This document shows, one piece after another, positions 11,205-64,000 of a stretch of 64,000 bases of DNA (position 1 is its first letter; every line of letters begins with the position of its first letter). The translations under genes were made by a program, and so were the position numbers. The notes under the pieces are model-generated. The model was not told the DNA's origin. It saw only the letters and a program-made list of their open reading frames with translations, and searched no databases. Source of the stretch: an uncultured Gammaproteobacteria bacterium (GTDB lineage: Bacteria; Patescibacteriota; Microgenomatia; 2-02-FULL-39-11); the NCBI GenBank assembly GCA_964544585.1, contig CAZJBV010000002.1, forward strand, positions 67,468-131,467, in the 5' to 3' direction.

Positions 11205-12262
11205 TAAAACACAAACCTAAACTAATCATCAAAAATAAAACTATTTCCCTTGAAAGCGATTGCTTTGTCGTGGCAGAAATAGGCCATAACCATCAGGGCA
11301 GTATCGAAATAGCCAAACAACTCTTTAAAGCAGCCAAAGAGTGTGGTGTCGATGCAGTCAAGTTACAAAAACGAAATAATAAAAAACTCTATACCCAGGA
11401 ATTTTATAATACTCCTTACAACAGCGAAAACGCATACGGACCAACATACGGCCGACACAGAGAAGCTCTCGAGTTTGGTGAAGGCCAGTTCAAGGAATTG
11501 AAAAAATATGCCGAGCATTTAGGATTAATCTTTTTTGCCACCCCATTTGATTTTGATAGCGTTGATTTTCTTGAGTCTATAGATACTCCCCTTTATAAAG
11601 TCGCATCAGGAGATTTGAGAAATATACCTCTTTTAGAATATATTGCCCGAAGGCAAAAGCCAATGCTTATTTCCACAGGCGGCGCGACCCTAGATGATGT
11701 CAAAAGAGCGTATAAGGTAGTAAGAGCCATCAATCCAAATTTTGCCATTCTACAATGCACCGCGTCATACCCGGCCGAGTTTTCAGAGCTAAATCTTCAT
11801 GTCATAAGTGAATATCAACGTCTCTTTCCTGACAACATCATTGGTTTTTCCGCTCATGACAACGGAATTGCCATGTCTGTAGCAGCCTATGTCCTAGGCG
11901 CAAGAGTTATCGAAAAACATTTTACCCTCAATAGAATCATGAAAGGTACAGATCACATATTTTCACTTGAGCCGGTTGGCATGAAGAAATTGGTCAGAGA
12001 TTTAAGAAGAGTCAAGGTGGGACTTGGAGATGGAGTTAAAAAAACGTATGAATCAGAAAAAGATCCAATACGCAAGATGAGTAAAACAATCGTCGCCGCA
12101 AAAGATATTCGTAAAGGACATGTTTTGACAAGTAAAGATTTAGCATTTAAATCACCAGGCGGTGGATTGCATCCCTATCAAATTGAAAAACTAATTGGAA
12201 AAAAAGTCAAAATACCTCTCAAAGAGGACGAGACAATAGCATTCGAACATCTTTATAAATGA
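11201..12262 (+). CDS. neuB: N-acetylneuraminate / nonulosonic acid synthase (NeuB family) with C-terminal SAF domain
   Basis: 'VVAEIGHNHQGS', 'FATPFD', 'YKVASGD', 'LISTGGATLDDV' and 'LQCTASYPAEF' align closely with the NeuB/PseI/LegI family. Confidence 0.85.
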   Translation: MIKHKPKLIIKNKTISLESDCFVVAEIGHNHQGSIEIAKQLFKAAKECGVDAVKLQKRNNKKLYTQEFYNTPYNSENAYGPTYGRHREALEFGEGQFKELKKYAEHLGLIFFATPFDFDSVDFLESIDTPLYKVASGDLRNIPLLEYIARRQKPMLISTGGATLDDVKRAYKVVRAINPNFAILQCTASYPAEFSELNLHVISEYQRLFPDNIIGFSAHDNGIAMSVAAYVLGARVIEKHFTLNRIMKGTDHIFSLEPVGMKKLVRDLRRVKVGLGDGVKKTYESEKDPIRKMSKTIVAAKDIRKGHVLTSKDLAFKSPGGGLHPYQIEKLIGKKVKIPLKEDETIAFEHLYK

Positions 12263-13083
12263 AAAAACCACTTGAATTATTTAAACTCGATGGCAATATA
12301 GCACTGGTTACTGGAGGCCTAGGAAATCTAGGGCCTTATTGGATAAAAGCGTTAAAAGGGGGTGGAGCAAAAGTAGTTTCGATTGATCTGCCGAACATAA
12401 AATCCTCTGACTATTACTTTTCCGTCGATATCACCGATATAAATCGTCTTCATAAATTACATACACAGATATCAAAAGATTTGGGAAGCGTTACAATACT
12501 TGTAAACAATGCCGGCATTGACGCACCACCCTCAAAGCACCTCGAAGGTGGCCGGCTTGCCCTGAGCGCAGTCGAAGGGGACTCCTTCGAGGTGAAGGAA
12601 ACAGGCTATGACTCCCCCGAGGTGAACAGGCTATATAAAAATATGTGGGATGTAAATGTCCAAGGTCTGGTAAATTGCATAGAAGTTTTTTCACCAGATA
12701 TGAAAAAGCAGAAGAAAGGAAGCATTATAAATATTGGCTCTCTCTATGGAGAAAAGTCACCAGACGAAAGATTATATAGCCATCTCGGTTTTGACAAGCC
12801 CTGGGCCTATGGAGCCACAAAAGCAGCGGTCCTTCAAGTTACTCGTCACTACTCCACCCGCCTTGCCAAATATAATATCAGAGTAAATACCTTATCACCG
12901 GGAGGAGTATTTAATAATCAAGATAAAGAATTTGTAAAAAAATATTCACAACACGTTCCCTTAGGCCGAATGGCAGAAAAAGTTACCGACCTTGCCGGCC
13001 CGCTTCTCTTTCTTGCCTCCGATGCATCAATCTATGTTACAGGCATAAATCTTCAAGTTAATGGCGGCTATACAGCTTGGTAA
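12259..13083 (+). CDS. SDR family oxidoreductase carrying an in-frame GC-rich palindromic element insertion
   Basis: 'ALVTGGLGNLG', 'NNAGI' and 'YGATKAAV' are SDR motifs. About 20 extra residues ('PPSKHLEGGRLALSAVEGDSFEV...') between NNAG and the catalytic region are encoded by the GC-rich repeat. Confidence 0.8.
   Translation: MKKPLELFKLDGNIALVTGGLGNLGPYWIKALKGGGAKVVSIDLPNIKSSDYYFSVDITDINRLHKLHTQISKDLGSVTILVNNAGIDAPPSKHLEGGRLALSAVEGDSFEVKETGYDSPEVNRLYKNMWDVNVQGLVNCIEVFSPDMKKQKKGSIINIGSLYGEKSPDERLYSHLGFDKPWAYGATKAAVLQVTRHYSTRLAKYNIRVNTLSPGGVFNNQDKEFVKKYSQHVPLGRMAEKVTDLAGPLLFLASDASIYVTGINLQVNGGYTAW
12538..12624. repeat. GC-rich nested palindromic element C1: arms CACCTCGAAGG/CCTTCGAGGTG plus an extra partial arm, in-frame inside the SDR gene
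   Basis: cacctcgaaggtggccgg...gggactccttcgaggtg at 12538-12594 and actcccccgaggtg at 12611-12624. A local GC spike in an AT-rich gene. Confidence 0.8.
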
Positions 13084-18921: not shown

Positions 18922-19769
18922 TGCCCAAATATTATTCCGACCTTTTTATAAAATCAGGCAAATTTATTTCCGGGAAAATAAAAGCCCCATTTTCGCTTTT
19001 GTTTCATCGCTTCAGAAATGAAATATTCAGAAAATCTCCCTACCATATGAAATATTTTGGTTTCAACTTGTATTATAAAAAGGGTGACGGAGGAATAAAT
19101 CATCTCGCCCGCGGATACTCATACGAACCAGACGTCATAGAGGCAATTATAAAAAATATACGCCCAAACTCTACCATAATCGATGTAGGAAGTAATATCG
19201 GCTTAATTACTCTTTCCGTGTTGCATTATTATCCCACCGCACACTTTCATTGTTTCGAACCATCTGGGTACTCTAATCAAATCTTTCAACAAACAATCTT
19301 GAAAAATAATTTAAACTCTAATATAAGATTGATAAAAAAAGGCCTCTACCACAAATCGGGAATCATTCCATTCTATACACACGGTATTCCTAACGCCCTA
19401 GGCGATGGTATTAAAGATACTAAAAGGGCTGGAATTTCAAAAAAGGCTCCAATCGAAGTAACTACTCTCGATAATTATGTTAAAAAATCTAAAATCCAAA
19501 AGATAGATCTCATCAAAATTGACGTCGAGGGTGCCGAGTTATTTGTCCTAAAAGGAGGAAGAAAATCAATTTTAAAATATCGTCCTCTTATCCTTTTTGA
19601 GGCAAACCCAGTAAACCTTCAAGCATATAATCTGATCCCGGGTGACATCTATCACTTCTTTTCAAAAATTGACTATAAAATCATTAGCCTTTCCGGAGAA
19701 ATATTAGATTTAGAAAAATTTGTAACTATGACCCAAAAAGTGGATAATTACTTGGCTTCTCCCATATGA
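18921..19769 (+). CDS. FkbM family methyltransferase (tandem paralog 2)
   Basis: 'IIDVGSNIGLITL...HCFEPSG' and 'IKIDVEGAELFVL'; paralogous to 18085..18921. Confidence 0.8.
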   Translation: MPKYYSDLFIKSGKFISGKIKAPFSLLFHRFRNEIFRKSPYHMKYFGFNLYYKKGDGGINHLARGYSYEPDVIEAIIKNIRPNSTIIDVGSNIGLITLSVLHYYPTAHFHCFEPSGYSNQIFQQTILKNNLNSNIRLIKKGLYHKSGIIPFYTHGIPNALGDGIKDTKRAGISKKAPIEVTTLDNYVKKSKIQKIDLIKIDVEGAELFVLKGGRKSILKYRPLILFEANPVNLQAYNLIPGDIYHFFSKIDYKIISLSGEILDLEKFVTMTQKVDNYLASPI

Positions 19770-21073
19770 AGGATATAGATATTCTTTGGTTCATCGAACA
19801 TATTGCCCGTGAGTTGGATGTAGCAGTCTTAGCAAGCTTAATTATCAACAAAAAATACGGCCTGACAGTAAAAATAGAACAGATATCAAATCTTAAGAAA
19901 ATAGAAAAGCTTTACAATCCCAAAATTATTCTCCTTCCTTATTGTTATGTTGCCACCGATGGTTATATAGAAAGAATAATTTCGATATGGCCAAAGAGTG
20001 TCTTTATCAATCTTGCTTGGGAGCAAATTTTTTATAATGCCAACAAAATATATAAATTGCCCCGCGACTATTTTGCTCGAAATTGCGTTTATCACCATGC
20101 CTGGAGCAAAACCAGAAAAAAAATACTTAAAAAGCTCGATATTCCAGACAAAAATATTTTTCTAAATGGCCAACCCGCCTATAAATTATATGATGAGCCA
20201 TACAAAAAACTTTTTATCAGTCGTAAAAATCTGGCAGAAAGATATCAATTAGATACTAACAAAACATGGATTTTCTTTCCCGAAAACTACAGTTGGTATT
20301 TCTATTCAAAAGAAACAATCCAAAAGATCATCCAGGATGGTCAAGGAGTAAAAACCATCAGCACTCTAAAAAATTATTGCAAAGACAGCTTTACAATTGC
20401 ACTTGAATGGTTAAACCAGATCGCAAAAAGATATGAAGATACTGTTGAAATCATCCTTCGTCCGCGTCCCTCATTTAGCCAAGAATATTTTTTATGGCAA
20501 GTACAGAAATTAAAACCGTCTCTATCCAAAAATATAAGAGTTATAAAAGATTTTTCCATCAGAGAATGGATTTTAGCAAGCGATATCGTAATTTCATCAT
20601 TTTCAACTTCACTTATCGAAGCCGCCATAGCTAAAAAAACTCTTTATATACTTGAACCTAATCCCATGCCAAATGAATTAATTGCAGAGTGGTATAAATA
20701 TGTCGAGAAAATAAAAAGTCTGAATGGATTATTCTCTATCCTGCCGGCCAGCCTGCCGGTAGGCATGGCAGGCAGGAATAATTACTTAAAGCTTCGTACC
20801 TGGGCACGGTCTAATTTTTATGTAAAAGATGATCCCATCCAAGGACTTGCGGATATTCTTGCAAAAATACCAGAAAAACAACTTCCAGAATTAAAAAATA
20901 CAAAAAGTCTATTCCGTCAAGCACAGAAAAAGGCATTCTCAATATTAAGTAAATTAAAAAAAGCAACAACAACCACGGATGCATATTTTAAATTAGATGA
21001 TGATAAAATCTTTGAGTCAGAATTAAAAGATAAAATGATTCGTTATAAAAACTTTATTGATAAATATCTATGA
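19766..21073 (+). CDS. hypothetical surface-carbohydrate biosynthesis protein (GT-B-like; candidate nonulosonate/ulosonate transferase)
   Basis: 435 aa. The 'IVISSFSTSLIEAAIAKK' region resembles the C-terminal domain of TagF/KpsC-type GT-B transferases. Carries an in-frame GC-rich palindrome at 20741-20776. Confidence 0.5.
   Translation: MKDIDILWFIEHIARELDVAVLASLIINKKYGLTVKIEQISNLKKIEKLYNPKIILLPYCYVATDGYIERIISIWPKSVFINLAWEQIFYNANKIYKLPRDYFARNCVYHHAWSKTRKKILKKLDIPDKNIFLNGQPAYKLYDEPYKKLFISRKNLAERYQLDTNKTWIFFPENYSWYFYSKETIQKIIQDGQGVKTISTLKNYCKDSFTIALEWLNQIAKRYEDTVEIILRPRPSFSQEYFLWQVQKLKPSLSKNIRVIKDFSIREWILASDIVISSFSTSLIEAAIAKKTLYILEPNPMPNELIAEWYKYVEKIKSLNGLFSILPASLPVGMAGRNNYLKLRTWARSNFYVKDDPIQGLADILAKIPEKQLPELKNTKSLFRQAQKKAFSILSKLKKATTTTDAYFKLDDDKIFESELKDKMIRYKNFIDKYL
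20741..20776. repeat. GC-rich palindromic element A1 (core CCTGCCGG..CAGGCAGG), in-frame in hypothetical CDS
   Basis: ctgccggccagcctgccggtaggcatggcaggcagg; encodes 'PASLPVGMAGRN'. Confidence 0.75.
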
Positions 21074-26894: not shown

Positions 26895-28146
26895 GATACT
26901 TATTTTTTCCCCTACAGCCCTTTCTACTTACTATGTTTTTTCCGGAAACATCATCTCTGCCATATTGGCATTTCTATATACTGTCCTCCTTGTTCGCAAC
27001 CTCTCCCTCGCAGACATTGGCTATTTTTCTGCCCTCTGGTCATTTTTGCTTCTTATTGCCGATGTAGCCGAACTTGGCATTGGCACCTCTCTTTCAGCCT
27101 TCGTCCCCATAGCCAAAAGTATAAATGATAGGTTCAATGTAATTAAAACAGCCATGATAATCCAATTTGTTGTAGCTCTATTATTTTCGCTGCCAATATT
27201 TATATTTTCGGATATCATTGCTTCCTTTCTCTTTCATTCGGAGAATTTAAACATACTGGTAAAAGTTACCAGCGTAGGCATTTTTATAGCCGTCATTAAT
27301 TACTTTTATCAATTGGCACTTACATCAGAGGAACGCTTTCTCAAAGTCGCTCTTTTTTCTATTTCCGGAAGCCTGTTTCGCTTAGGGTCTGGTCTAATAC
27401 TCGTCCTGATTTCTCTATTTACTTTAAAAAATGCAGTCATGACACAAGTATTCTCATTAGGCTTATTATTTCTATTAGGAATATTATTGCACCGAAATTC
27501 CATTCTAAAGGGGAAACTTTTACCACTATTTATTAAGAATTTTCTTGCATTTTCTTCATTCCTGGGGATCGCCCGGGGAATGACAGCTTTAGCGTCCCGA
27601 CTTGATGTTCTCATGATTGTGGCAATACGTGGCCCGACAGAAGCAGGCATCTACGCCATTGCCGCAAGAGTAATCTCTCTCTATCCGCTTCTTTCCGGTA
27701 GTTTCAGCTCGGTTCTCGCCCCCAAAATAGCAGCGTTTCGAGAAAAACAGGAGCTCATCAAATTTACTAAAAAAGTTATCCTGGCAACTTTGGGAATAAT
27801 TTTTACCATCATAATTCTCATAATAATAGCCAATCCATTTATGACATTACTCTTTCAGGAAAAGGGAACACAAGCATCTGGCATCTTCCAAGTACTGCTT
27901 ATAAGCATGGTATTCTTTGTCTCCTCAATTCCACCCGTCACATTAGCAGTTTACAGTCTCAAAAAGCCTCATATTTTGACCATCAATAGTTTAATCCAGG
28001 TGACCATAGTATTTTTAGGAAATCTATTCCTCATTCCTCATTTTGGCTATTTTGGCGCCGCCTACTCACTCATCGCGGCTTATGCCATTTCATTAGTTTT
28101 AACCACAGTCTTAACTATTTATTATTTAAATAAAAGATATGGCTAA
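26881..28146 (+). CDS. wzx: oligosaccharide flippase (Wzx, MOP superfamily)
   Basis: 421 aa with about 12 TM segments and Wzx-like topology. Confidence 0.75.
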   Translation: MKRIKILIFSPTALSTYYVFSGNIISAILAFLYTVLLVRNLSLADIGYFSALWSFLLLIADVAELGIGTSLSAFVPIAKSINDRFNVIKTAMIIQFVVALLFSLPIFIFSDIIASFLFHSENLNILVKVTSVGIFIAVINYFYQLALTSEERFLKVALFSISGSLFRLGSGLILVLISLFTLKNAVMTQVFSLGLLFLLGILLHRNSILKGKLLPLFIKNFLAFSSFLGIARGMTALASRLDVLMIVAIRGPTEAGIYAIAARVISLYPLLSGSFSSVLAPKIAAFREKQELIKFTKKVILATLGIIFTIIILIIIANPFMTLLFQEKGTQASGIFQVLLISMVFFVSSIPPVTLAVYSLKKPHILTINSLIQVTIVFLGNLFLIPHFGYFGAAYSLIAAYAISLVLTTVLTIYYLNKRYG

Positions 28147-29026
28147 TCTAAAAATAACAGTTCATATGATAGTCAAAAATGAAGATAGATTCATTTGGTA
28201 TGCGATTAAGTCAGTCTTAGATTATATTGATAAATTATTGATATTTGATACAGGAAGTAAAGATAATACAGTTGAAATAATAAAAAATATAAATTCCCCC
28301 AAAATAGATTTCGAACAAAAAGGCAATGTAAATTCAAAAAAATTAGTAGAATTACGCCAAGAGCAGATAGAAAAGACTAAAACAGACTGGATTTGGATAG
28401 TCGATGGAGATGAAATCTATCCAGATGTAACCATAAAAGAGATATTAAAATATATAAACCAAAATCGCCATATAGGCGGAATCGTCAGGCGCTTCGATCT
28501 ACTCGGGGATATTTATCATTATCAGGATGAAAGCGTAGGTAGTTACCATCTTTTAGGCATGACAGGACATCTCGTACTTCGATGTCTAAACATTAAAAAA
28601 ATTGACGGCCTTCATCTCAAAGGTCTTTACCCAAACGAAGGCTATTATGACAGAAATGACCAAGTACTCATTGATTACCCCCGCAAAGATTTCTTTTTTA
28701 CCAGAAATAGATTATTTCATGCCATGTATTTAGAGAGATCAAGTCTAGGTAGAAATTTATTACAGACGTTACACAGAAGAAAATATAAAATAGAGGAAGG
28801 CAATTATTTTTCCGCAACCGAGGAATTCCCCAATATTTTTTTCCAAAAACATCCCCAACTTGTTTCAGATGTGACGGCAACCCGTGATGTCCGCTACGAT
28901 ATTGCCGCAAAACTAATTACTCCGATAAAAAAACTAAAACGAAATATCTTTAATACACCTGGAAGGTGGCCGGATGCCTGCCTGCCGGCAAGGCAGGGAC
29001 TCCTTCCAGGTGGAAAAAATAAATGA
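28139..29026 (+). CDS. GT2-like glycosyltransferase whose C-terminal tail is encoded by a GC-rich palindromic element
   Basis: 'VHMIVKNEDRFI' and 'DTGSKDNT' in the N-terminal part. The last ~20 codons ('GRWPDACLPARQGLLPGGKNK') are encoded by repeat 28956-29013. Confidence 0.6.
   Translation: MANLKITVHMIVKNEDRFIWYAIKSVLDYIDKLLIFDTGSKDNTVEIIKNINSPKIDFEQKGNVNSKKLVELRQEQIEKTKTDWIWIVDGDEIYPDVTIKEILKYINQNRHIGGIVRRFDLLGDIYHYQDESVGSYHLLGMTGHLVLRCLNIKKIDGLHLKGLYPNEGYYDRNDQVLIDYPRKDFFFTRNRLFHAMYLERSSLGRNLLQTLHRRKYKIEEGNYFSATEEFPNIFFQKHPQLVSDVTATRDVRYDIAAKLITPIKKLKRNIFNTPGRWPDACLPARQGLLPGGKNK
28956..29013. repeat. GC-rich nested palindromic element A2 (outer arms CACCTGGAAGG/CCTTCCAGGTG, inner core CCTGCCTGCCGGCAAGGCAGG), forming the 3' end of a GT2 gene
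   Basis: cacctggaaggtggccggatgcctgcctgccggcaaggcagggactccttccaggtgg. It shares 'gaaggtggccgg' and 'gggactccttc.aggtg' with C1. Confidence 0.85.
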
Positions 29027-44296: not shown

Positions 44297-44317
44297 CCTG
44301 CCTGACCGGCAGGCAGG
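44297..44317. repeat. GC-rich palindromic element A3 (core only), intergenic, flanked by TTCATAATTCATA direct repeats; possible terminator hairpin
   Basis: cctgcctgaccggcaggcagg, lying between ...attcataattcata and cttcataattcataattc, 15 bp after the stop of the upstream CDS. Confidence 0.75.
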
Positions 44318-52915: not shown

Positions 52916-52932
52916 ATGTATAATATAGCTAT

Positions 52933-55148: not shown

Positions 55149-56227
55149 GATTTGTCATTTTTGCAGGAGGAGTTGGCACCAGACTTTGGCCCCTATCGCG
55201 TAAAAAATCTCCCAAACAGTTTGAAAAAGTATTAGGAGACAAATCTACTTTAGAGCTTACTGTAGAAAGAATTCTTCCTTTATCCTCGTGGGATGACATT
55301 TATCTCGCCACCGGTAGTCGTTACACCGAATTGGTTAAAAAAATTCTCCCTGGCCTTCTCCTAGAAAATATTATTGGAGAACCTGAGATGAGAGACGTCG
55401 GTCCGGCCGTGGGACTCATGGTGTCCATTTTAGCAAAAACTTCACCCCACGACCCAATTGCCATCATCTGGAGCGACCATATTATCAAAAATGAGAATAT
55501 TTTTCACAATTGTTTAAAAACGGCAGAAACATTGGTATCACAGAAAAAGGCAAATTTGGTCTTTATCACTCAAAAAGCCAGGTTCCCAAGCCAAAACCTA
55601 GGCTGGATAGAATATGGCCATAAGATTGCCAAAGTTTCGGATGTAGAAATTTATGAATTTAAAAGTTTAACATATAGACCCGATTTAGGTCTTGCCCAAA
55701 ATTTTTTTAGCAGCGGACATCACGCCTGGAATGTGGGTTATTTTGTCACTACCCCGGTATTTTTGTTGGAAAAATATCGTCAGTTTAATCCAGATCTTTA
55801 TAGTGGCCTGAAAAAAATCCAGGAATCGTTTGCGACCTCTTCTTTTACAAAAGTGCTGCGGCAAATCTATCCCAAACTCGAAAAGATTTCTTTTGACGAA
55901 GCTATTCTTTCAAAGTTGGCTCCAAAAGAGGCGCTTGTCTTGGCCGAAGAACTTGGCTGGAGCGACGTCGGCGCCTGGGAGGCTCTAAAAGAAGCGCTTC
56001 AAACTTCTCCAGATCAAAATGTCGTCCAAGGAAAAGTACTAGTTGAAGGAAGCAAAGACAGTCTAATTTATAATTACACCAATCAAATGATCGTATCCAT
56101 CGACCTAAATGGTCTTTTGGTCGTCAATACCAAAGACGTCCTTCTCATCTGCCATAAAAATTCCGTCCCCAAAATAAAAAAAGTTGTCGAAAGTTTACAA
56201 GGCAGTAAAAACGACCATCTGACATAA
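55145..56227 (+). CDS. sugar-phosphate nucleotidyltransferase (mannose-1-phosphate guanylyltransferase-like, no cupin domain)
   Basis: 'FVIFAGGVGTRLWPLSRKKSPKQF' is the ManC/CpsB N-terminal signature. Confidence 0.75.
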   Translation: MRFVIFAGGVGTRLWPLSRKKSPKQFEKVLGDKSTLELTVERILPLSSWDDIYLATGSRYTELVKKILPGLLLENIIGEPEMRDVGPAVGLMVSILAKTSPHDPIAIIWSDHIIKNENIFHNCLKTAETLVSQKKANLVFITQKARFPSQNLGWIEYGHKIAKVSDVEIYEFKSLTYRPDLGLAQNFFSSGHHAWNVGYFVTTPVFLLEKYRQFNPDLYSGLKKIQESFATSSFTKVLRQIYPKLEKISFDEAILSKLAPKEALVLAEELGWSDVGAWEALKEALQTSPDQNVVQGKVLVEGSKDSLIYNYTNQMIVSIDLNGLLVVNTKDVLLICHKNSVPKIKKVVESLQGSKNDHLT

Positions 56228-56233
56228 TACATA

Positions 56234-56890
56234 ATGTTTATTAAAGGTAAATTATACGATGCTACCCTAAAGCGTCTCGTCGACATTATCGGCGCATCTC
56301 TACTTCTTATTGTATTCTCGCCAGTATGCGCCATTATTGCCATCATGATAAAAATTGATTCCCATGGTCCAATTTTGGCCGATACTCCGCAAAGAGTAGG
56401 TAAGGGTGGCAAACTTTTTAAAATGTACAAATTCCGCTCCATGATCAATAAAGCCCACGATATTTTAAGAAAAGATCCAGATTATAAAAATCTCTACGAA
56501 CAGTACAAAAGAAATAGCTATAAGTTATTAAAAGATCCCCGCGTGACACTCATAGGACGATTTATTAGAAAGCATTCGCTGGATGAGATTCCCCAACTTA
56601 TAAATATTTTAAAGGGAGATATGAGCCTGGTAGGACCTCGGGCTTATTATCCCGACGAACTGCAAAATCAGCAAAAAAAATATCCCCATACTAGAGATAT
56701 GGTCAAGGAAGTGCTTTCCATAAAACCAGGCATTACCGGTTATTGGCAAGTATCTGGAAGAAGCGAAGTAAATTTCGATAAAAGAATTGCCATGGATAGA
56801 GATTACGTACAAAGGCGATCCCTTCTCTATGATTTAAAGATCCTCCTGAAGACTCCCTGGGCAATGATTTCTGGCAAAGGAGCAGTCTAA
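56234..56890 (+). CDS. initiating polyprenyl-phosphate sugar phosphotransferase (monotopic PglC/WbaP-C-terminal type)
   Basis: 'YKFRSM', 'DEIPQL' and 'MSLVGPR' are bacterial sugar-transferase motifs. Confidence 0.85.
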   Translation: MFIKGKLYDATLKRLVDIIGASLLLIVFSPVCAIIAIMIKIDSHGPILADTPQRVGKGGKLFKMYKFRSMINKAHDILRKDPDYKNLYEQYKRNSYKLLKDPRVTLIGRFIRKHSLDEIPQLINILKGDMSLVGPRAYYPDELQNQQKKYPHTRDMVKEVLSIKPGITGYWQVSGRSEVNFDKRIAMDRDYVQRRSLLYDLKILLKTPWAMISGKGAV

Positions 56891-56941
56891 ATTTGACTTT
56901 ATTTCCAACTATTAGCTAAAATATATTTTTATTCCCTACCC

Positions 56942-58939
56942 ATGCCCATTAATGACGGTTTCTCAAAAATAAATGTAGAAACTACTCCACCGGAGAACCA
57001 ACCCGCGGCAGAAATACAGGCAAATCAAAATAAAATTGAAAATCCTGTCAAAGAGTCAAAAATTGAAATGAAAAAGACACCCAGACTACCAATCCCCAAA
57101 AAATTTCTCCTTATTCCGGCAGCATTTATTCTTTTTATCATCTTTCTTATCGGAGTAACCATTATAATGGGTAGGGATTTTTACTATTCCGTAAAAAAAG
57201 TCCAAACAACAGGTAGAGAAGCCCTTGCCGCCGCTAAAACCCAAAATCTAGATGAAACCCAAAAAAAATTTAAACAGTTGGAACTAGAAATTGTCGATGC
57301 CCAAAACAATTACCAGAAGCTAGCTTTCTTAGGATATATTCCTCTTATCAACGCCTACTATAATGATGGTCGCCACGCTCTAAATGCCGGCCTAAACGGC
57401 GTCCAGGCAGGCATAATATCGGTTTCGGCCGTTACTCCCTATGCCGATCTTTTAGGCCTCAAAGGCAAATCTAAATTTGTCTCCGGCTCAGCAGATCAGC
57501 GCATTCAAACAGCGGTCAAAACCTTGGACAAAGTGACTCCACAGATTGGCAAAATATCAGAAAAAATTGCCGTTGTCAAAAATGAACTCGACGAAATAGA
57601 CCCCAATCGCTATCCGGAAAAAATCGGCAATACCAGTGTTAAACCACGTCTGATATCCTATCGCGAACTTTTTGATAATACCGCCAATTTATTTTTAAAC
57701 GCCACTCCACTTTTGGAAGAGTTGCCCAAACTTCTAGGAGAGCCAAAGCCAAAGCGATATCTAGTTCTTTTTCAAAACGATAAAGAACTTCGCCCCACAG
57801 GAGGCTTTATCACGGCCTATGCCGTATTCAAAGTCGAAGGTGGAAAACTCACCGTTGAAAAATCTGATGATATTTATAAACTCGACGAAATGAAACCAAA
57901 AAAATTCCCTGCTCCGCCCGAAATCCTTAAATACCATAAGGGAGTCTATTCTCTCGAACTTCGTGATAGCAACCTTTCCCCTGACTTTGATACCTCGATG
58001 AAAAAATTTGAAGAACTATTATCTTCAGTCGATGGATTTCCCGAATATGATGGAATCATCGCTCTCGATACTCATGTTTTAGTATCATCAGTGGAAATTT
58101 TAGGCGAATTTAATATTGCTGGAAGAAAATTCTCGGCAGAAATTGACGAACGCTGCGATTGTCCCAAAGTAGTTTATGAATTGGAAGACTATGCCACTCG
58201 TCCGGTTGCATATGTCAGGGCAGACCGAAAAGATATAATATCGACCCTCCTTTATGAAATTATGCAGAGAGCTCTTGGCGTTTCTCCTTCACAATATTGG
58301 GGCAGGCTTTTCCAGATGGGGCTAGAGGAAATGGAACAAAAACACATCCTTTTTGCCCTCAAAGATGCCAAAGCTCAAAAAGGTATCGAAAACCTCAATT
58401 TTGGCGGCCACATCAAGGCTTTTGACGGAAATTATCTGCACATCAACGACGCTAATATGGCGGGCGCCAAATCAAATCTTTTTGTCAAAGAATCCATAGA
58501 TTATGACTTGAACGTTGACGGAAATGGACAGGGGACTGTCACTCTTACCATAGATTATAAAAATCCCGCTCCTCCTTCAGACTGTAACCTAGAATCTGGC
58601 GGTCTTTGTCTCAATGGACTTCTTAGAAATTGGGTTCGCATTTATGTCCCCAAAGGCTCCCAGCTTATAGAATTTAAGGGATCAGAAGTGGATACTACAT
58701 CTTATACGGATCTTGGTCATACCGTCTTTGAAGGCTTCCTCACCGTCAAACCTCAAGGATCGGGAAAATTAACCGTCAAATATAAACTCCCAAGTAAAAT
58801 TGAAAGTGGCATAGACCTACCACTTCTAATTCAAAAACAGCCCGGAACCAATGGCAATAAGTACACTATCAAAGTCAATGGTCGTCAAATTGACAAATTT
58901 CCTCTCCTGACAGATAAAAAGATAATATACAAAATATAA
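56942..58939 (+). CDS. DUF4012 domain membrane-anchored protein
   Basis: N-terminal TM segment plus 'NDKELRPTGGFITAY', the conserved DUF4012 block. Confidence 0.7.
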   Translation: MPINDGFSKINVETTPPENQPAAEIQANQNKIENPVKESKIEMKKTPRLPIPKKFLLIPAAFILFIIFLIGVTIIMGRDFYYSVKKVQTTGREALAAAKTQNLDETQKKFKQLELEIVDAQNNYQKLAFLGYIPLINAYYNDGRHALNAGLNGVQAGIISVSAVTPYADLLGLKGKSKFVSGSADQRIQTAVKTLDKVTPQIGKISEKIAVVKNELDEIDPNRYPEKIGNTSVKPRLISYRELFDNTANLFLNATPLLEELPKLLGEPKPKRYLVLFQNDKELRPTGGFITAYAVFKVEGGKLTVEKSDDIYKLDEMKPKKFPAPPEILKYHKGVYSLELRDSNLSPDFDTSMKKFEELLSSVDGFPEYDGIIALDTHVLVSSVEILGEFNIAGRKFSAEIDERCDCPKVVYELEDYATRPVAYVRADRKDIISTLLYEIMQRALGVSPSQYWGRLFQMGLEEMEQKHILFALKDAKAQKGIENLNFGGHIKAFDGNYLHINDANMAGAKSNLFVKESIDYDLNVDGNGQGTVTLTIDYKNPAPPSDCNLESGGLCLNGLLRNWVRIYVPKGSQLIEFKGSEVDTTSYTDLGHTVFEGFLTVKPQGSGKLTVKYKLPSKIESGIDLPLLIQKQPGTNGNKYTIKVNGRQIDKFPLLTDKKIIYKI

Positions 58940-58942
58940 CCA

Positions 58943-59497
58943 ATGTCCCGTTACTCCTGCGAATGTATTATTCTCAAAAGACAAAATTTTGGTGAAGGCG
59001 ATAAAATAATCACAGTTTTTGCCAAGAAATTCGGCAAAATGAAAGTTTTGGCAAAAGGAATCCGTAAAATCTACAGTCGCCGTGCTCCTCACCTCGAACT
59101 TTTCAATCAAACCCGTTTACACCTTTATAAAGGCAAAAACTTTGATATCATCACCGAGGCAGAAAACGTCAGCGTCAACGAAAATCTAAAAAAGGATATT
59201 AATAAAATTGCCACGGCCTATTTTTTAGTCGAAATTGTTGACAGACTTTGTCCCGAGGGGGTTGTTCATGATGATATCTACGCCTCTCTTGTCAATGCAT
59301 TAACGCTATTAAATCATAATAGACCCGAAGACCAAAACCTCATCAAGGATGCTTTTGCCAATAATTTACTCCATTATTTGGGCTTTTTACCCTTCAGTCA
59401 AAACCTAAAAGGCACCACACTCGTAAATTATATAGAATCCATTTTGGAAGGTCGCCTCAAGACTCCCGGCATCTTGACAAAAGTTGCTCAAGATTAG
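58943..59497 (+). CDS. recO: DNA repair protein RecO (short form)
   Basis: RecO N-terminal OB-fold pattern 'CIILKRQNFGEGDKIITVFAKKFGKMKVLAKG'. Confidence 0.65.
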   Translation: MSRYSCECIILKRQNFGEGDKIITVFAKKFGKMKVLAKGIRKIYSRRAPHLELFNQTRLHLYKGKNFDIITEAENVSVNENLKKDINKIATAYFLVEIVDRLCPEGVVHDDIYASLVNALTLLNHNRPEDQNLIKDAFANNLLHYLGFLPFSQNLKGTTLVNYIESILEGRLKTPGILTKVAQD

Positions 59498-59533
59498 TAT
59501 AGTCGAATTTCAAATTTAGAGTATACTTAAATT

Positions 59534-60865
59534 ATGGATCTCATGGATAAAATAGTTTCACTTGCAAAGCGCCGGGGATTTATATATCCCGGATCAGAAA
59601 TCTATGGTGGATTATCCAATTCTTGGGATTACGGTCCCGTAGGTACCGAGCTCAAAAAAAATATCAAAGATCTCTGGTGGAAGACCTACGTTCACAGAAG
59701 AGATGACATTGTCGGCATTGATGCCGCCCTCATCATGAATCCCAAAGTCTGGGAAGCCTCGGGTCATATCGAGGGTTTTGTTGATCCGCTCAGAGAATGT
59801 AAAGTTTGCCACAAAAGATTTCGTGAAGATGCCTTTGACCCCGAAAATCCAGTTTTTATCTGTCTTGACGGAAAGCCCCACAAAAAAGAAAATTTGACAG
59901 AAACAAAGAATTTTAACCTTATGTTTAAAACTTTTGTCGGTCCAACAGAGGATTCGGAATCAAAAGCTTTTCTTCGTCCCGAGACAGCTCAGGCTATGTT
60001 TGTGGACTTTCAAAATGTATTGTCTACCCACCCCAAAAAACTTCCATTTGGTATCGCCCAAATAGGAAAAGCCTTCAGAAATGAAATAACCACCGGCCAT
60101 TTTCTTTTTAGACTTCGTGAGTTTGAACAAATGGAAATAGAATATTTCATCAGACCTCCGCAAAAAGAGGCCGAATGGCAAAATCATTTTGAAACTTGGC
60201 GAAAAGCAATGTGGGACTGGTTTACTCTCGTTGGAATTGATAAATCAAAAGTCAAAGAGCATGAAATTCCGGATGGTGAACGCGCCCATTACTCAAAAAG
60301 GACCATAGATTTTGAGTTTGAATACCCCTTTGGTTTGAAAGAACTTTACGGTCTAGCATACCGGACCGATTATGACCTCTCCCGCCACCAAAAATATTCA
60401 GGAAGAGATCTGACCTATACAGACCAGGAAACCGCAGAGAAATTTATTCCCCATGTCATCGAACCAACGTGGGGCGTAGACAGGACTATACTGGCAATAC
60501 TTCTATCTTCCTATTTCGAAGATGGAAAAAGGATTGTATTGAGGCTTCCTTCCCAAATTGCACCATATAAAGCTGCAATCTTTCCACTTGTTGCCAACAA
60601 GGAAGATCTAGTAGCTAAAGCTCGGTCCGTTTACGAGAAAATGAAAAAATCCTTGATGGTAGTTTGGGATGACCGGGGAAACATCGGCAAACGCTATTTT
60701 GCCCAGGATGAGATCGGTACCCCCTTCTGTTTGACTATTGACTATACGACATTGGATGATGATACAATAACAATACGTCATAGAGACACAACAAAGCAAG
60801 AAAGAATAAAAATTGATAAAGTAAAAGACTATATAGACAAAAACATCAATCTGTCCACCCCATGA
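59534..60865 (+). CDS. glyQS: glycine--tRNA ligase (dimeric class II type)
   Basis: 'RRGFIYPGSEIYGGL...DYGPVG' and full-length colinearity with Thermus/eukaryal-type GlyRS. Confidence 0.9.
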   Translation: MDLMDKIVSLAKRRGFIYPGSEIYGGLSNSWDYGPVGTELKKNIKDLWWKTYVHRRDDIVGIDAALIMNPKVWEASGHIEGFVDPLRECKVCHKRFREDAFDPENPVFICLDGKPHKKENLTETKNFNLMFKTFVGPTEDSESKAFLRPETAQAMFVDFQNVLSTHPKKLPFGIAQIGKAFRNEITTGHFLFRLREFEQMEIEYFIRPPQKEAEWQNHFETWRKAMWDWFTLVGIDKSKVKEHEIPDGERAHYSKRTIDFEFEYPFGLKELYGLAYRTDYDLSRHQKYSGRDLTYTDQETAEKFIPHVIEPTWGVDRTILAILLSSYFEDGKRIVLRLPSQIAPYKAAIFPLVANKEDLVAKARSVYEKMKKSLMVVWDDRGNIGKRYFAQDEIGTPFCLTIDYTTLDDDTITIRHRDTTKQERIKIDKVKDYIDKNINLSTP

Positions 60866-61347
60866 TCGTCAAACTCAAAAAATTTAATGTCGTCATCGTC
60901 ATTATTGTTCTCATTGTCTTAATTATTCTAGCACTCATTATAAAAACTATTACGACCCCTAGAAGCTCATCAGACGAAGATATCACTCCTACTCCAATAG
61001 AAGCCCTTCCCACTATAGATGAAAATTCTGTTGACGTTTCGCTAGATTTTGTCGACAACAATCGCGCCATGATCCTATCAATTAAAAACATTCCCGATGC
61101 TACAGAATCAATTGACTATGAAGTCTCATATACAACAGGAGAAGGGATTCCTAAAGGCAATATTGGTACCATTCGCCTCAAGGCATCCCAAAAAGAAGTT
61201 GAAAGAAGGGGTGAAGAATTGACTCTCGGCACCTGCTCCCGCGGCCGCTGTGTTTACTATCAGGGCGTCGATAATGTAAATTTAAGCCTCAAATTCAATT
61301 TTTCCAACGGCTCCTCCGCCATCTTCCAAAAAGAATATTCTCCCTAA
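60862..61347 (+). CDS. hypothetical membrane-anchored protein
   Basis: 161-aa ORF with an N-terminal TM anchor and a soluble domain of unknown function. Confidence 0.5.
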   Translation: MIVKLKKFNVVIVIIVLIVLIILALIIKTITTPRSSSDEDITPTPIEALPTIDENSVDVSLDFVDNNRAMILSIKNIPDATESIDYEVSYTTGEGIPKGNIGTIRLKASQKEVERRGEELTLGTCSRGRCVYYQGVDNVNLSLKFNFSNGSSAIFQKEYSP

Positions 61348-61413
61348 ATTCATAATTCATACTTTATAATTTTAAAGCCCTATCTGTAGTGCTCTAAAGC
61401 AAGCTTTAACCCC

Positions 61414-61442
61414 TTGACATCGGCCTAAAATTGGTTCATCAT
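61414..61442 (+). promoter_or_regulatory. candidate sigma70-type promoter for mraZ (TTGACA, 17-bp spacer, weak -10 CATCAT)
   Basis: TTGACA at 61414-61419 and CATCAT at 61437-61442. A TATAAT is also present at 61368-61373. Confidence 0.3.
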
Positions 61443-61466
61443 GGTGTAAGATGGTGAAAATTGGTT
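61431..61466 (+). promoter_or_regulatory. putative MraZ operator: four direct repeats (TTGGTT, ATGGTG, ATGGTG, TTGGTT) at exact 10-bp phasing
   Basis: Direct repeats at 61431, 61441, 61451 and 61461, 40-70 bp upstream of mraZ. MraZ proteins are known to bind phased short direct repeats upstream of their own gene. Confidence 0.6.
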
Positions 61467-61503
61467 AGAATAGTAGAATTTAAAGGCATTTTAATAGCGG
61501 GAT

Positions 61504-61899
61504 ATGTTTTTAGGTACATACGAGCACAATTTAATGGAGGAGGGGAGAATTGCCCTTCCTAAAAAATTAAGAAATGCACTAGGTGGACAAAGATTAATAG
61601 TCAGAATCGGTCTAGAACCATGTATCGTAGGGTTTAGAGAATCGGACTGGATAGAAAACACAAAAGGAGAGCTGGCAAGACCATTTTTTTCTGACAAAGA
61701 AGGGAGGGATATCAGAAGAAAAATATTCTCAGACGCCGAGTATGCAGAATTGGATAATCAAGGCAGGTTTGTCCTGCCGCGATCAATGATAAATCACGCC
61801 AGAATAAGAGATAAAGTTACGATAATTGGAGCCGGTGATCACTTTGAGATTTGGGAGACAAAAATTTGGCAAGCATATCAAAAGGGTTTGACCAATTAA
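61504..61899 (+). CDS. mraZ: transcriptional regulator MraZ
   Basis: 'MFLGTYEHNLMEEGRIALPKKLR' and a duplicated MraZ domain. Confidence 0.85.
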   Translation: MFLGTYEHNLMEEGRIALPKKLRNALGGQRLIVRIGLEPCIVGFRESDWIENTKGELARPFFSDKEGRDIRRKIFSDAEYAELDNQGRFVLPRSMINHARIRDKVTIIGAGDHFEIWETKIWQAYQKGLTN

Positions 61900-61917
61900 T
61901 TTCGGATTTCACTGCCT

Positions 61918-62829
61918 ATGATCCGAAATGAAAACGAATTTCATACTCCCGTCTTACTCTCACAGGTGATTGTCGGCCTCAATATAAAAAAAGGTGGCCT
62001 TTATATAGATGCCACAATCGGAGGGGGAGGTCACACAAGAGAAATATTGCAACTTGAAGGAAAAGTATTAGGCATTGATCAAGATCCAAACGCCGTTGAA
62101 TATGTAAAAGATCATATTCAAAATCCAAATCTCCTCCTCCAAGTGGGCAATTTTAGAGATATAAAAGAAATTGCCCAAAAATTTGGCTTTAATAAAGTAG
62201 ACGGAATTTTATTTGACCTTGGCATATCGAGCTATCAGTTAGACAAGGGTAGTAAGGGATTTTCCTTTCTCAAAGATGAACCGCTCGATATGCGGATGGA
62301 TAAAAGAAGTTGGCCCGTAACAGCTGAGAAAGTGGTAAATAAATATTCTGTGAGTGAGCTTTATGACATATTTACGTTATTTGCTGAGGAAATCGATTCT
62401 CGGGATGTTTCTAAAAATATTGTTCGCGCCCGTAAAATAAAGCCGATAAAAACCACGGCAGATTTAGTTTCGGCCGCAGGTCTGGATCTAGCTAAGATTG
62501 AAGATATCGGCAAAGCTGCGCGCATTTTTCAAGCAGTGAGAATCGAGGTGAACCAGGAGTTAGAAAATTTAAAAAGGGCTATCCCAGAGGCAACGGCTCT
62601 ATTAGTTAGGGGCGGAAGATTGTTATTTATCAGCTTTCATTCCCTGGAAGATAGAATCATCAAGTTACAAATGAGAAAGGCCATGCCTGCCGGCAGGCAG
62701 GGCCTGCCTGCCGGTAGGCAGGAAAAAATTCAGGAACTGACAAAAAAACCAATAGTTCCAGATGAAAAAGAACAAAGGATAAACCCGAGATCAAGATCGG
62801 CCAAATTAAGAATCTATGAGAAAATATAG
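61918..62829 (+). CDS. rsmH: 16S rRNA (cytosine1402-N4)-methyltransferase RsmH, with an in-frame GC-rich palindromic insertion near the C-terminus
   Basis: 'HTPVLL', 'YIDATIGGGGH', 'FDLGISSYQLD' and 'LDMRMD'. The extra 'AMPAGRQGLPAGRQ' is encoded by repeat 62685-62722. Confidence 0.9.
   Translation: MIRNENEFHTPVLLSQVIVGLNIKKGGLYIDATIGGGGHTREILQLEGKVLGIDQDPNAVEYVKDHIQNPNLLLQVGNFRDIKEIAQKFGFNKVDGILFDLGISSYQLDKGSKGFSFLKDEPLDMRMDKRSWPVTAEKVVNKYSVSELYDIFTLFAEEIDSRDVSKNIVRARKIKPIKTTADLVSAAGLDLAKIEDIGKAARIFQAVRIEVNQELENLKRAIPEATALLVRGGRLLFISFHSLEDRIIKLQMRKAMPAGRQGLPAGRQEKIQELTKKPIVPDEKEQRINPRSRSAKLRIYEKI
62685..62722. repeat. GC-rich palindromic element A4 (tandem double core), in-frame in rsmH
   Basis: gcctgccggcaggcagggcctgcctgccggtaggcagg. 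Confidence 0.8.
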
Positions 62830-63142
62830 CGACAAAGAAAAAGAAATAAAAAGAAGATCCCTATTACCTATAGTATTAATAATAATGGTAGTCGTTCTTG
62901 CCGTGGTACAGATGTTTATTCTCAATAGTCTTGCCACTAAAGGAGCAAAACTGACCAAAACAGAAAAAGAAGTAGAAAAGATTGCCAAAGAGAATGAACT
63001 ATTTCAGGCCAAAGTCGCTTCCTCATCATCAATGACTACAATTTTTGCCCGCGCCAAACTGCTTGGTCTTGTTAATTCTCCCGAAACCAGATCCCTGACA
63101 TCTCCTCTACCGGTAGCCCAAATTGATAAGGTCTTCAATTGA
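62816..63142 (+). CDS. ftsL: cell division protein FtsL-like (TM plus coiled coil)
   Basis: 108 aa with a single TM and a charged helical tail, placed between rsmH and ftsI. Confidence 0.55.
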   Translation: MRKYSDKEKEIKRRSLLPIVLIIMVVVLAVVQMFILNSLATKGAKLTKTEKEVEKIAKENELFQAKVASSSSMTTIFARAKLLGLVNSPETRSLTSPLPVAQIDKVFN

Positions 63143-64000
63143 TGATGGAGAGACGAATTCGTTTAATTTTTATCTTCTTTATTCTCATTTTTATATTCAT
63201 CCTTCTTAAACTTTTCTACTGGCAAATTTTTATGTCCGATGAATTCGGAGGAGAAGCGGTAAATCAAAGAACTCGTACATTAAAGATTCCAAGTCAAAGA
63301 GGGACAATCATGTCTTCCTTCGAAACTTCAATTATCTCAAATGAAAGGGCTTATCTTCTCTATGCCGAACCAAAAAAAGTAGATGACCCAATTTTATTGA
63401 GACAAAAGTTGGCCGAACTTCTCGAGGTTGATGAGGCCTCAATAAGTAGTAATCTGGGCGACAAGAAAAAAGCCTGGGTATCAGTATGGAGAAAAGTTCC
63501 CGAGGGAAAAAAGGATAAAATCGAAAGCCAAAATCTTCAGGGAGTAGGTTTTGAGGAAGAATCAATTAGATTCTATCCCGAATCTTCCATGGCAGCTCAC
63601 CTTATGGGTTTTGTCGGTCTTGATGCCAAAGGCGATGACAAAGGCTATTTTGGCCTCGAAGGCTATTACGATAGACAATTAAGAGGAAGAGATGGCATCT
63701 TAAAGCAGGAAACAGACGCTTTTGGCCTTCCTATCCTTATGGGACTGCAAAATCGCCTAGAACCAATAGACGGCCGCTCCCTAATTCTTCATTTGGATAA
63801 AAGCGTCCAGTTTATTATCGAGGAAAAGCTTAAAAAGGCGCTAGAAAAATACGAGGCTAAAGGAGGTTGGGTAATAGTCATGGACCCCAAAACAGGCGGC
63901 ATACTTGGCATGGCCTCCTATCCCAATTATGACCCGAAAAATTATACCAGTTTTGAAAGTTTTCTCTATAAAAATCCAGTGGTGGCAGAAACCTACGAAC
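63142..64000 (+). CDS. ftsI: peptidoglycan D,D-transpeptidase FtsI (PBP), N-terminal part; continues beyond the window
   Basis: Frame 1 is open from the ATG at 63142 to the window end. It has an N-terminal TM, 'RGTI', and a PBP dimerisation domain ('LHLDKSVQFIIEE', 'GGWVIVMDPKTGGILGMAS'). Not in the ORF track because there is no stop in the window. Confidence 0.8.
   Translation, partial: MMERRIRLIFIFFILIFIFILLKLFYWQIFMSDEFGGEAVNQRTRTLKIPSQRGTIMSSFETSIISNERAYLLYAEPKKVDDPILLRQKLAELLEVDEASISSNLGDKKKAWVSVWRKVPEGKKDKIESQNLQGVGFEEESIRFYPESSMAAHLMGFVGLDAKGDDKGYFGLEGYYDRQLRGRDGILKQETDAFGLPILMGLQNRLEPIDGRSLILHLDKSVQFIIEEKLKKALEKYEAKGGWVIVMDPKTGGILGMASYPNYDPKNYTSFESFLYKNPVVAETYE

Follow-up and report, generated by a model that had tools for sequence, protein, structure and literature searches.

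The locus and its host gene

We analyze a GC-rich palindromic element lying within rsmH, the gene for a 16S rRNA methyltransferase, in a 64,000-nucleotide (nt) stretch of NCBI contig CAZJBV010000002.1 (assembly GCA_964544585.1), hereafter the window. The gene is an uninterrupted open reading frame (ORF) of 303 amino acids (aa), and within its reading frame lie two adjacent palindromic cores, GCCTGCCGGCAGGCAGG and GCCTGCCTGCCGGTAGGCAGG (17 + 21 nt, 38 nt in total), exactly as an earlier note on this DNA had described them when it proposed a tandem double core. The double-core stretch has a G+C content of about 83%, against 30–40% in the surrounding window, and is translated as ...RKAMPAGRQGLPAGRQEKIQ... 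within the longer stretch ...SLEDRIIKLQMRKAMPAGRQGLPAGRQEKIQELTKKPI... The cores are each self-complementary, so that as a tandem pair they fold into a single long hairpin of 17 continuous pairs plus 2, with a 3-nt loop and, as RNA, one G-U pair; its free energy is -42.7 kcal/mol (z -6.4) as RNA and -23.2 kcal/mol (z -5.95) as DNA. About 95 nt separate the hairpin from the start of a 108-aa ORF downstream, and a search of the window against Rfam returned no family match at gathering score, merely sub-threshold chance hits to hairpin models.

The product of the host gene has thousands of homologues with Methyltransf_5 (PF01795) and matches three structures in the Protein Data Bank (PDB): 1wg8 (Thermus thermophilus TT1512, E 2e-61), 3tka (E. 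coli RsmH) and 1m6y (Thermotoga TM0872). Tested for family membership, the ORF has both the PF01795 sequence family and the class I S-adenosylmethionine (SAM)-methyltransferase fold with an inserted helical domain, and its closest named relatives are Candidatus Gottesmanbacteria, of the candidate phyla radiation (CPR/Patescibacteria). The gene order is of the division and cell wall (dcw) type, with mraZ, rsmH, the 108-aa ORF overlapping the rsmH stop codon and an FtsI-type penicillin-binding protein (PBP_dimer/Transpeptidase). The earlier note had called rsmH essential, which is too strong a term, since E. coli rsmH deletion mutants are viable. A second palindrome-like string nearby, GGCAGGtttgtCCTGCC in mraZ (61762-61778), was rejected as a copy of the element: its arms stand in the opposite order and it encodes the MraZ segment GRFVLP, making it a look-alike. 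The features discussed here are collected in Table 1.

Table 1 Coordinates of the rsmH locus, of further repeat copies in the window and of tRNA-associated copies elsewhere
Feature	Position	Strand	Evidence or context
rsmH, 16S rRNA m4C1402 methyltransferase	61918..62829	+	ORF, PF01795 homologues, PDB, AlphaFold2 and Foldseek
Core copy 1, GCCTGCCGGCAGGCAGG, the 20-nt palindrome in shortened form	62685..62701		Motif search
Core copy 2, GCCTGCCTGCCGGTAGGCAGG, common C-to-T variant of the 20-nt palindrome	62702..62722		Motif search
42-nt (14-codon) gap relative to the empty allele L001	62678..62719	+	Alignment placement; borders ambiguous, both flanks differ
Long hairpin from both cores, 17 + 2 pairs, loop GGC	62681..62722	+	RNA and DNA fold
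Diverged patch, 19 substitutions and the insert	62643..62736	+	Comparison with L001
mraZ, upstream of rsmH	61504..61899	+	ORF; PF02381 in the equivalent L001/L002 genes
108-aa ORF at the usual ftsL position in dcw clusters, no family match	62816..63142	+	ORF list; Pfam scan
Degenerate, nested copy, in frame, reads LPASLPVGMAGR	20739..20776		435-aa surface-carbohydrate biosynthesis ORF 19766..21073
21-mer copy CCTGCCTGCCGGCAAGGCAGG	28977..28997		3' end of family-2 glycosyltransferase ORF 28139..29026
21-mer copy CCTGCCTGACCGGCAGGCAGG, intergenic	44297..44317		Set in an array of TTCATAA heptamers
Other tRNA-associated loci	L131, L200, L082 2106-2150, L039 4017-4065, L066 3610-3690

Absence of the segment from RsmH orthologues

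The nearest protein in sequence (P0001, Ca. Gottesmanbacteria, GCA_016186845.1) has 289 aa and lacks exactly 14 residues at the insert point; outside this gap it differs from the window RsmH at just five residues, all of them adjoining the gap. An equivalent segment was found at the insert site in none of 35 further CPR RsmH orthologues (alignment A2), and the segment is missing in all 36 of the other aligned RsmH sequences (the conspecific allele described below and the 35 CPR orthologues). The earlier note had proposed such an alignment, holding to an insertion unless related RsmH proteins universally contained an equivalent segment, and the aligned proteins bear it out. Judged by sequence, the segment is foreign to the RsmH family.

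Its location in the protein was assessed on an AlphaFold2 model of the window RsmH built on alignment A2, which has a mean predicted local distance difference test (pLDDT) of 91.8. The insert (approximately residues 256–269) falls within a coil at 256–270, between a helix (242–255) and a strand (271–273), and the two 10-residue blocks that cover it have pLDDT values of 76 and 57, nearly all other blocks lying between 90 and 98. Outside the insert, the model can be superposed on 1wg8 at a Foldseek template-modeling (TM) score of 0.92 and a root-mean-square deviation (rmsd) of 2.2 Å. As far as a model allows, the insert is therefore a predicted surface loop in the connection from the final helix of the methyltransferase fold to a C-terminal strand, in line with the loop that the earlier note had anticipated. 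In the Thermus and Thermotoga structures (1wg8, 1m6y) the connection at the insert point is tight and direct. E. coli and Firmicutes-type RsmH proteins have longer segments of their own there, unrelated to the insert, and on that account we regard the site as permissive for length change.

Many GC-richer bacteria have a Cys-rich segment, CxCPRQAPxCxCG, at this same RsmH position, as seen in metagenomic rsmH genes (L230, L236, L227, L228/L233/L234). The DNA that encodes it, for example ACCTGCCCGAGGCAGGCG, resembles CCTGCC...GGCAGG, so that a similar palindrome occurs in the same loop; the resemblance to the core is probably a coding coincidence.

Filled and empty alleles of rsmH

The insert-bearing rsmH occurs on contigs of four independent Logan assemblies (L002-L005), 99.97–100% identical to the window, and on the 197.7-kb NCBI contig; its recovery in four separate Logan assemblies means that it is not an assembly artifact. 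An empty allele is carried by a conspecific contig, JACPKX010000011.1 (L001), which we compared with the window over their shared 11 kb. From approximately 54000 to 64000 of the window (about 10 kb) the two are identical except for a patch at 62643-62736, which measures 94 nt in the window and 52 nt in L001, corresponding to a 42-nt gap and 19 substitutions, 12 to its left and 7 to its right. The rsmH polymorphism is thus a replaced 94-nt patch and not a clean, simple insertion.

The first seven substitutions of the patch (62643, 646, 652, 655, 658, 661 and 664) all fall at third codon positions and are synonymous, a signature of a homologue that diverged under purifying selection and unlike that of error-prone repair at an insertion site. 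Because of this pattern, the sequence points to a short homologous-recombination tract, with a third and diverged allele of rsmH as the presumable partner. The element and its flanks may have been taken up by this strain, or an empty patch by the relative, and we hold the two to be about equally probable. Recombination finds further support in the mosaic structure of a glycosyltransferase region, where window positions 52750-54000 differ from L001 260-1400 at about 119 positions, against none in the next 8.6 kb; a boundary this sharp, near 54000, is a sign that recombination is frequent in the population. Short, highly diverged segments in otherwise identical backbones are described as a known class of bacterial microdiversity in passages of PMC2884548.

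Further copies in the window and in another rsmH

The repeat unit is a GC-rich palindrome of 20–21 nt, (CCTG)2CC followed by GG(CAGG)2, with consensus CCTGCCTGCCGGCAGGCAGG and a perfect form that joins CCTGCCTGCC to GGCAGGCAGG. The pattern CCTGCCN{0,10}GGCAGGCAGG has five matches in the window, representing five cores at four loci in 64 kb, where 100 shuffles gave 0.00, and a looser 17-mer gives 16 overlapping matches at the same number of window loci against 0.08 expected. The nested copy at 20739-20776 lengthens a variable loop by 5 aa compared with homologues. The copy at 28977-28997 is situated in the loop of a 57-nt outer palindrome (28956-29012), which makes the C-terminus of the glycosyltransferase approximately 20 aa longer than in homologues. 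The window is very densely coding, with 55 ORFs set end to end and often overlapping, and three of the four loci overlap coding sequence, one of these at a gene end, the fourth being intergenic; finding one intergenic and one gene-end locus among four in so dense a window suggests that many coding insertions are lost to selection.

In the metagenome-assembled genome (MAG) of another member of the Gottesmanbacteria (L006), a core, CCTGCCTCGCCGGCAGGCAGG, occupies another site of rsmH, within the portion for the N-terminal Rossmann part, flanked by AAGTTCA heptamers and again within an insert of 42 nt, or 14 codons (...KFKVQSSLPRRQAGKFKV...). Being two independent copies at different sites of the same conserved gene, these sequences argue for repeated insertion of the element into rsmH. 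The dispersed element that the earlier note had proposed thereby gains three further loci in the window (20739-20776, 28977-28997 and 44297-44317) and a second rsmH; its description as genome-wide agrees with the further loci in the same genome and proves too narrow in scope, as the element is also found in many phyla and in phages.

A second presence/absence polymorphism involves the glycosyltransferase locus. Contig L221 (Logan, SRR12113383) begins GAAGGTGGCCGAATG, followed directly by GACTCC..., and thus represents the locus at 28977-28997 without exactly its 21-nt core. Aligned over its positions 1-40 with window 28961-29012, it shows one adjacent G-to-A change, at 28972, and it is otherwise 100% identical over 4 kb; the indel is precise, comprises the whole unit and leaves no duplication or footprint. 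Contigs of three other runs end at 28991 or start at 28977, inside the palindrome (L220, L222 and L223 start there, L238-L240 end there), which is an assembly effect of the hairpin, and the glycosyltransferase gene (28139..29026) is, as recorded, whole on the NCBI contig only. Contig L216 likewise starts at 12559, inside the window's other 57-nt palindrome.

These two palindromes, at 12538-12594 and 28956-29012, constitute a second family, each member measuring exactly 57 nt. They share an 11-bp outer stem, CACCTSGAAGG/CCTTCSAGGTG, with a compensatory C:G to G:C change between copies, and differ in their interiors, 28956-29012 holding the CCTGCC core and 12538-12594 resembling CCTGAGCG..CGAAGG, a motif that also stands beside cores in other phyla (L067, L121). 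The copy at 12538-12594 lies in frame in a short-chain dehydrogenase ORF (12259..13083), in an unalignable stretch after the NNAG motif that we take to be about 20 aa longer than in typical enzymes of the family. Directly after it, 12581-12640 holds an imperfect tandem duplication, GACTCCTTCGAGGTGAAGGAAACAGGCTAT / GACTCCCCCGAGGTGAACAGGCTAT, which doubles DSFEVKETGY / DSPEVNRLY in the protein.

Distribution across bacteria and phages

Scanning one genome per GTDB species with the pattern CCTGCCN{2,3}CCGGCAGGCAGG recovered at least 120 stretches in more than ten phyla. Among Patescibacteria, the carriers are Parcu-, Wolfe- and Saccharibacteria, WWE3, and Doudna-, Uhr-, Yanofsky- and Adlerbacteria, and among Bacteroidota they include the cultured Winogradskyella echinorum, Olivibacter oleidegradans and Flagellimonas yonaguniensis; further carriers belong to Omnitrophota, Planctomycetota, Gamma- and Deltaproteobacteria, Nitrospirota, Chloroflexota, Ignavibacteria and Bdellovibrionales. 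AT-rich genomes are numerous among the carriers, some copies lie inside megabase contigs of cultured isolates, and no sequence conservation was found between loci outside the core. No cyanobacterial record occurs among the 80 matches listed out of at least 120. In IMG/VR, 88 stretches of viral contigs contain the core, 35 of them as the exact 20-mer, against zero for each of two control palindromes of the same composition and design, one with the arms swapped (GGCAGGCAGGCCTGCCTGCC) and one with T changed to A (CCAGCCAGCCGGCTGGCTGG), and the over-representation is therefore specific to the core sequence. We found no publication that contains the 20-mer, nor a description of such a repeat for CPR or Bacteroidota.

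Clusters among the viral loci were rejected as the signal of a driver, as they represent one family of related GC-rich phages with a coding copy common by descent, and a BLAST search of a plasmid collection gave merely chance-like partial matches in GC-rich taxa. The phage contig IMGVR_UViG_3300037242_000417 (29.5 kb; L175, L185 and L189; with a terminase and an SU10-type adaptor) holds at least seven core copies. Some of these cores stand at both ends of longer inverted repeats on this contig, as at 9001-9020/10422-10441, flanking 1.4 kb.

Anatomy of the repeat family

The anatomy of the family was derived from 219 distinct sites (L008-L215) from the genome and viral scans. The most frequent center among these copies is TG, the perfect 20-mer (103 copies), followed by TA (44) and then by 21-mers with one extra central base. 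The TA variant, CCTGCCTACCGG (CCGGTAGGCAGG on the other strand), which is the equivalent of core copy 2 in rsmH, accounts for 20% of copies, other pattern-allowed substitutions reaching at most 5, and could represent either a sub-family that is propagating or a hotspot of mutation. An internal GTAG arises in this variant, which shows no strand bias with respect to transcription (17 against 13). About one in five bacterial copies (27 of ~125) lies in a long ORF, mostly in the LPAGRQ frame.

The core is flanked by direct repeats of 7 nt or longer at 14% of sites, compared with 4.7% for within-locus controls; inspection reveals these to be tandem 7–8-nt arrays holding the core, and a periodicity at lag 7 marks 3.3% of flanks, compared with 0.1% of control windows. 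A fixed-length target-site duplication is ruled out on these grounds, and the flanks yield no insertion-site consensus, showing just a depletion of T at -1 and of A at +1. Nested copies, with a core at the center of a core, occur at L035, L046 and L096, and tandem pairs at L038, L142 and L208. The nested form is non-discriminating, since symmetric duplication of an arm at a broken hairpin tip would yield the same sequences as insertion.

Association with tRNA genes is more frequent than expected, 11 of ~220 copies lying within 150 nt of such a gene against about 2 expected. In a phage tRNA-Met (L179 2239-2330, IMG/VR), the 20-nt core forms exactly the long variable arm, and ARAGORN still calls a 92-nt tRNA. 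Elsewhere, 5' fragments of tRNAs (up to the D loop) are joined directly to a core, in some cases with an intact tRNA of that type shortly downstream. The fusions at L082, L039 and L200 were rejected as functional tRNAs, ARAGORN calling none in them.

Interpretation of the rsmH insert

The segment in rsmH is a copy pair of a dispersed hairpin repeat, polymorphic between strains and preserving both the reading frame and, apart from the added loop, the protein fold. We consider it probable that this double core is a passenger, that is, a copy of an ultra-short dispersed hairpin repeat resembling repetitive extragenic palindromic (REP) sequences and small dispersed repeats (SDR), tolerated at a permissive loop. 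Its persistence in rsmH can be attributed to a length that is a multiple of three and to a stop-free frame encoding a flexible Pro/Ala/Gly/Arg/Gln loop (MPAGRQGLPAGRQ). In the scenario we propose, the family would spread, or would have spread, as a selfish hairpin whose insertion is precise and entails no target duplication, with single-stranded or hairpin-loop DNA, such as the loops of other palindromes, tRNA loops and heptamer arrays, as its preferred target. Copies would survive only at harmless positions, namely stop-free in-frame protein loops, tRNA loops, gene ends and spacers, and existing copies would pass from one strain to another through homologous recombination of their flanks, the tract in rsmH being some 94 nt long and coming from a diverged allele. 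The hairpin in the rsmH mRNA would simply be unwound by ribosomes and have no role.

A functional reading, in which the hairpin is a co-opted RNA element of the dcw operon that blocks 3'-5' exonucleases, is processed by an RNase III-type enzyme or makes translation pause ahead of the downstream ORF, would suit both its stability (17 + 2 bp, -42.7 kcal/mol, z -6.4) and its place approximately 95 nt 5' of the start of the 108-aa ORF; REP sequences, moreover, appear as RNA-level control elements, also inside genes, in passages of PMC3733652 and PMC12306157. We nevertheless judge this reading unlikely, as a strain identical in the surrounding 10 kb does without the hairpin, no orthologue considered here has it at this site, and the other copies stand in contexts as unrelated as glycosyltransferase loops, an intergenic heptamer array, tRNAs and phages. 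The G-U-preserving variant also lacks a sense-strand preference (17 against 13), and Rfam offers no match. More improbable still is a home-grown expansion of the loop, by slippage or duplication of CCTG/CAGG within rsmH, with its likeness to other loci due to convergence. Tetranucleotide units could indeed slip, duplications of arms exist in the nested copies and the RsmH site does vary in length, but a CCTG/CAGG seed is lacking from this position of the empty allele, the exact 20-mer occurs at least 35 times in phage contigs against zero for both control palindromes, and a 20-mer of 80% G+C is not expected by chance in AT-rich carriers of many phyla, let alone at four loci in 64 kb.

Strong over-representation, the CCGG and GCCGGC at the center of the unit and the predominance of the TA variant (44 against at most 5) would also be consistent with a selected DNA signal comparable to cyanobacterial HIP1, used by a host protein (for example of a methyltransferase or restriction system or of a recombination system, or a nucleoid protein) and copied by biased repair. 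Point changes, however, cannot build up a unit as long as 20–21 nt, the rsmH, L006 and L221 alleles differ by lengths of 21–42 nt and not by substitutions, and no host factor would be common to CPR, Bacteroidota, Planctomycetota and phages, for which reasons we give this explanation very little credence. Palindromes do disturb short-read assembly, and Logan contigs of several runs break inside the copy at 28977-28997, but an assembly chimera or a library-derived palindromic adapter is scarcely conceivable as the source of the rsmH insert, given an identical filled gene in four independent Logan assemblies and on the NCBI contig, the conserved frame, the sequence variants and tandem or nested forms of the repeat, and its copies within megabase contigs of cultured isolates.

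Several observations weigh against a selfish, mobile hairpin repeat. Mobility is inferred from the distribution of the family and from two presence/absence polymorphisms, either of which could be a deletion, and the empty site of L221 rests on 15 nt of left flank at a contig end. No candidate donor of the rsmH patch emerged, in that 5.8 billion proteins contained no RsmH between 57% and 94% identity and a metagenome scan (EDR[IV][IV]K followed by the core) matched just GC-rich rsmH genes with the native CxCPRQAPxCxCG. Nor did a mobilizing gene come to light: the ten of the 55 window ORFs scanned with Pfam matched no transposase family, and no REP-associated tyrosine transposase (RAYT, a Y1 HUH transposase) was present among these ten, 64 kb of the genome being visible; no recurrent gene family was found within 4 kb on either side of 120 bacterial copies, where all-against-all ORF comparison returned only ATP-binding cassette (ABC) ATPases and the like; and the phage contig richest in copies (at least seven) has no transposase, its terminase and adaptor being present. 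A hairpin of -42.7 kcal/mol some 95 nt upstream of the next ORF makes an RNA-level effect possible, and the identity of 20-mers across phyla is hard to explain when known REP-type systems are lineage-specific.

Going beyond the passenger reading, we entertain with considerable reserve the possibility that the 20–21-nt palindrome CCTGCCTGCCGGCAGGCAGG is itself the mobile element, which would make it the smallest known and one of exceptionally wide host range, from CPR to Chloroflexota and phages. Its hosts would comprise CPR/Patescibacteria, Bacteroidota, Omnitrophota, Planctomycetota, Proteobacteria, Nitrospirota and Chloroflexota together with their phages, and it would enter hairpin loops or single-stranded DNA precisely, with no duplication of the target, by means of a driver that is either universal in bacteria or yet to be recognized. 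Targeting of this kind would explain the presence of copies in palindrome loops, in the D and variable loops of tRNAs, in heptamer arrays and in protein surface loops, and the rsmH copy would be one recent event, caught as a strain polymorphism.

Significance and comparison with known systems

The genomes of CPR bacteria are tiny, gene-dense and usually described as repeat-poor. In the present case, CPR strains that are otherwise identical differ in the presence of a selfish-looking hairpin repeat, and this repeat stands in frame in conserved genes, twice in rsmH, where both the site and the lineage are different. In practical terms, such repeats fragment short-read assemblies and CPR gene calls, lengthening or truncating genes, and add spurious-looking segments of the LPAGRQ type to protein families. 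Should the element prove mobile, its cultured carriers Winogradskyella echinorum KCTC 22026 and Olivibacter oleidegradans CCM 7765 would provide tractable systems for the study of how a 20-nt hairpin moves.

The repeat is like REP sequences and their paired forms (REPINs) in being a short (20–40 nt), GC-rich palindrome with many copies that occur singly or paired into a longer hairpin, and the repetition of a short palindrome is evident in its five cores at four loci in 64 kb against none expected. Passages of PMC3733652 report that a minority of REPs lie wholly within ORFs and add residues to conserved proteins ('REP-decorated' proteins), and give as a criterion of REPs that the stem-loop bears a terminal GTAG or CGTC tetranucleotide on one side. 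The canonical core, in contrast, has no terminal GTAG or CGTC, a GTAG arising just internally, in the T variant. REP families are, furthermore, lineage-specific and predominantly extragenic, lying downstream of genes, whereas this 20-mer is identical across phyla and phages and overlaps coding sequence at three of its four loci in the window, although the window is densely coding. Single-strand transposition of the REP/RAYT type would be the obvious analogy for a movement of the element. Miniature inverted-repeat transposable elements (MITEs) have the terminal inverted repeats of a parent insertion sequence (IS), a target-site duplication of fixed length and a size of ~50–500 bp. The present unit measures 20–21 nt and has no fixed duplication, and the L221 indel is precise. 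The sharing of one exact 20-mer by many phyla and phages is unexplained by current REP or MITE models.

Rickettsia palindromic elements (RPE) are ~100–150 bp long and best known from Rickettsia. They offer a likeness in habit, being in-frame palindromes of conserved genes that occupy tolerated surface positions and whose presence differs between close relatives; the unit here is of 20–21 nt, the insert of 42 nt and the hosts of many phyla, and the sequences are unrelated. GC-rich palindromes are also found in fungal mitochondria, as the GC clusters of yeast, the PstI palindromes of Neurospora and the double-hairpin elements of Allomyces. Coding palindromes in the mitochondria of Nematomorpha are described in a passage of PMC6649704. 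Mitochondrial GC palindromes share with the present repeat the form of GC-rich hairpins in AT-rich, gene-dense genomes, their occurrence near tRNA genes and in coding regions and their polymorphism between strains, and differ from it in their organellar setting and in sequence. We know of no cross-phylum spread of these palindromes.

The closest match in size and habit, by analogy, is with the SDRs of Nostoc and its relatives (Elhai et al. 2008, as cited in PMC2884548), hairpins of 21–27 nt, often in heptamer arrays, that nest in copies of themselves or of other small elements. The citing passage presents them as proposed smallest mobile elements; they are reported to be restricted to a single cyanobacterial subgroup. 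Hairpins set in heptamer arrays recur here, in the TTCATAA array at 44297 and the AAGTTCA array of L006 and in the lag-7 periodicity of the flanks, as does nesting, at L035, L046 and L096 and in the copy at 28977-28997, which lies within a 57-nt palindrome that has a core-less allele. The two systems, compared by description only, differ in their hosts, which here are CPR, Bacteroidota, Omnitrophota, others and phages, and in the in-frame genic copies of the present repeat. In-frame palindromes in conserved genes are already established through RPEs and REPs; what the rsmH insert and its family add are a CPR host, a very short unit and a 20-mer shared across phyla, and this cross-phylum distribution is the more surprising part of the finding.

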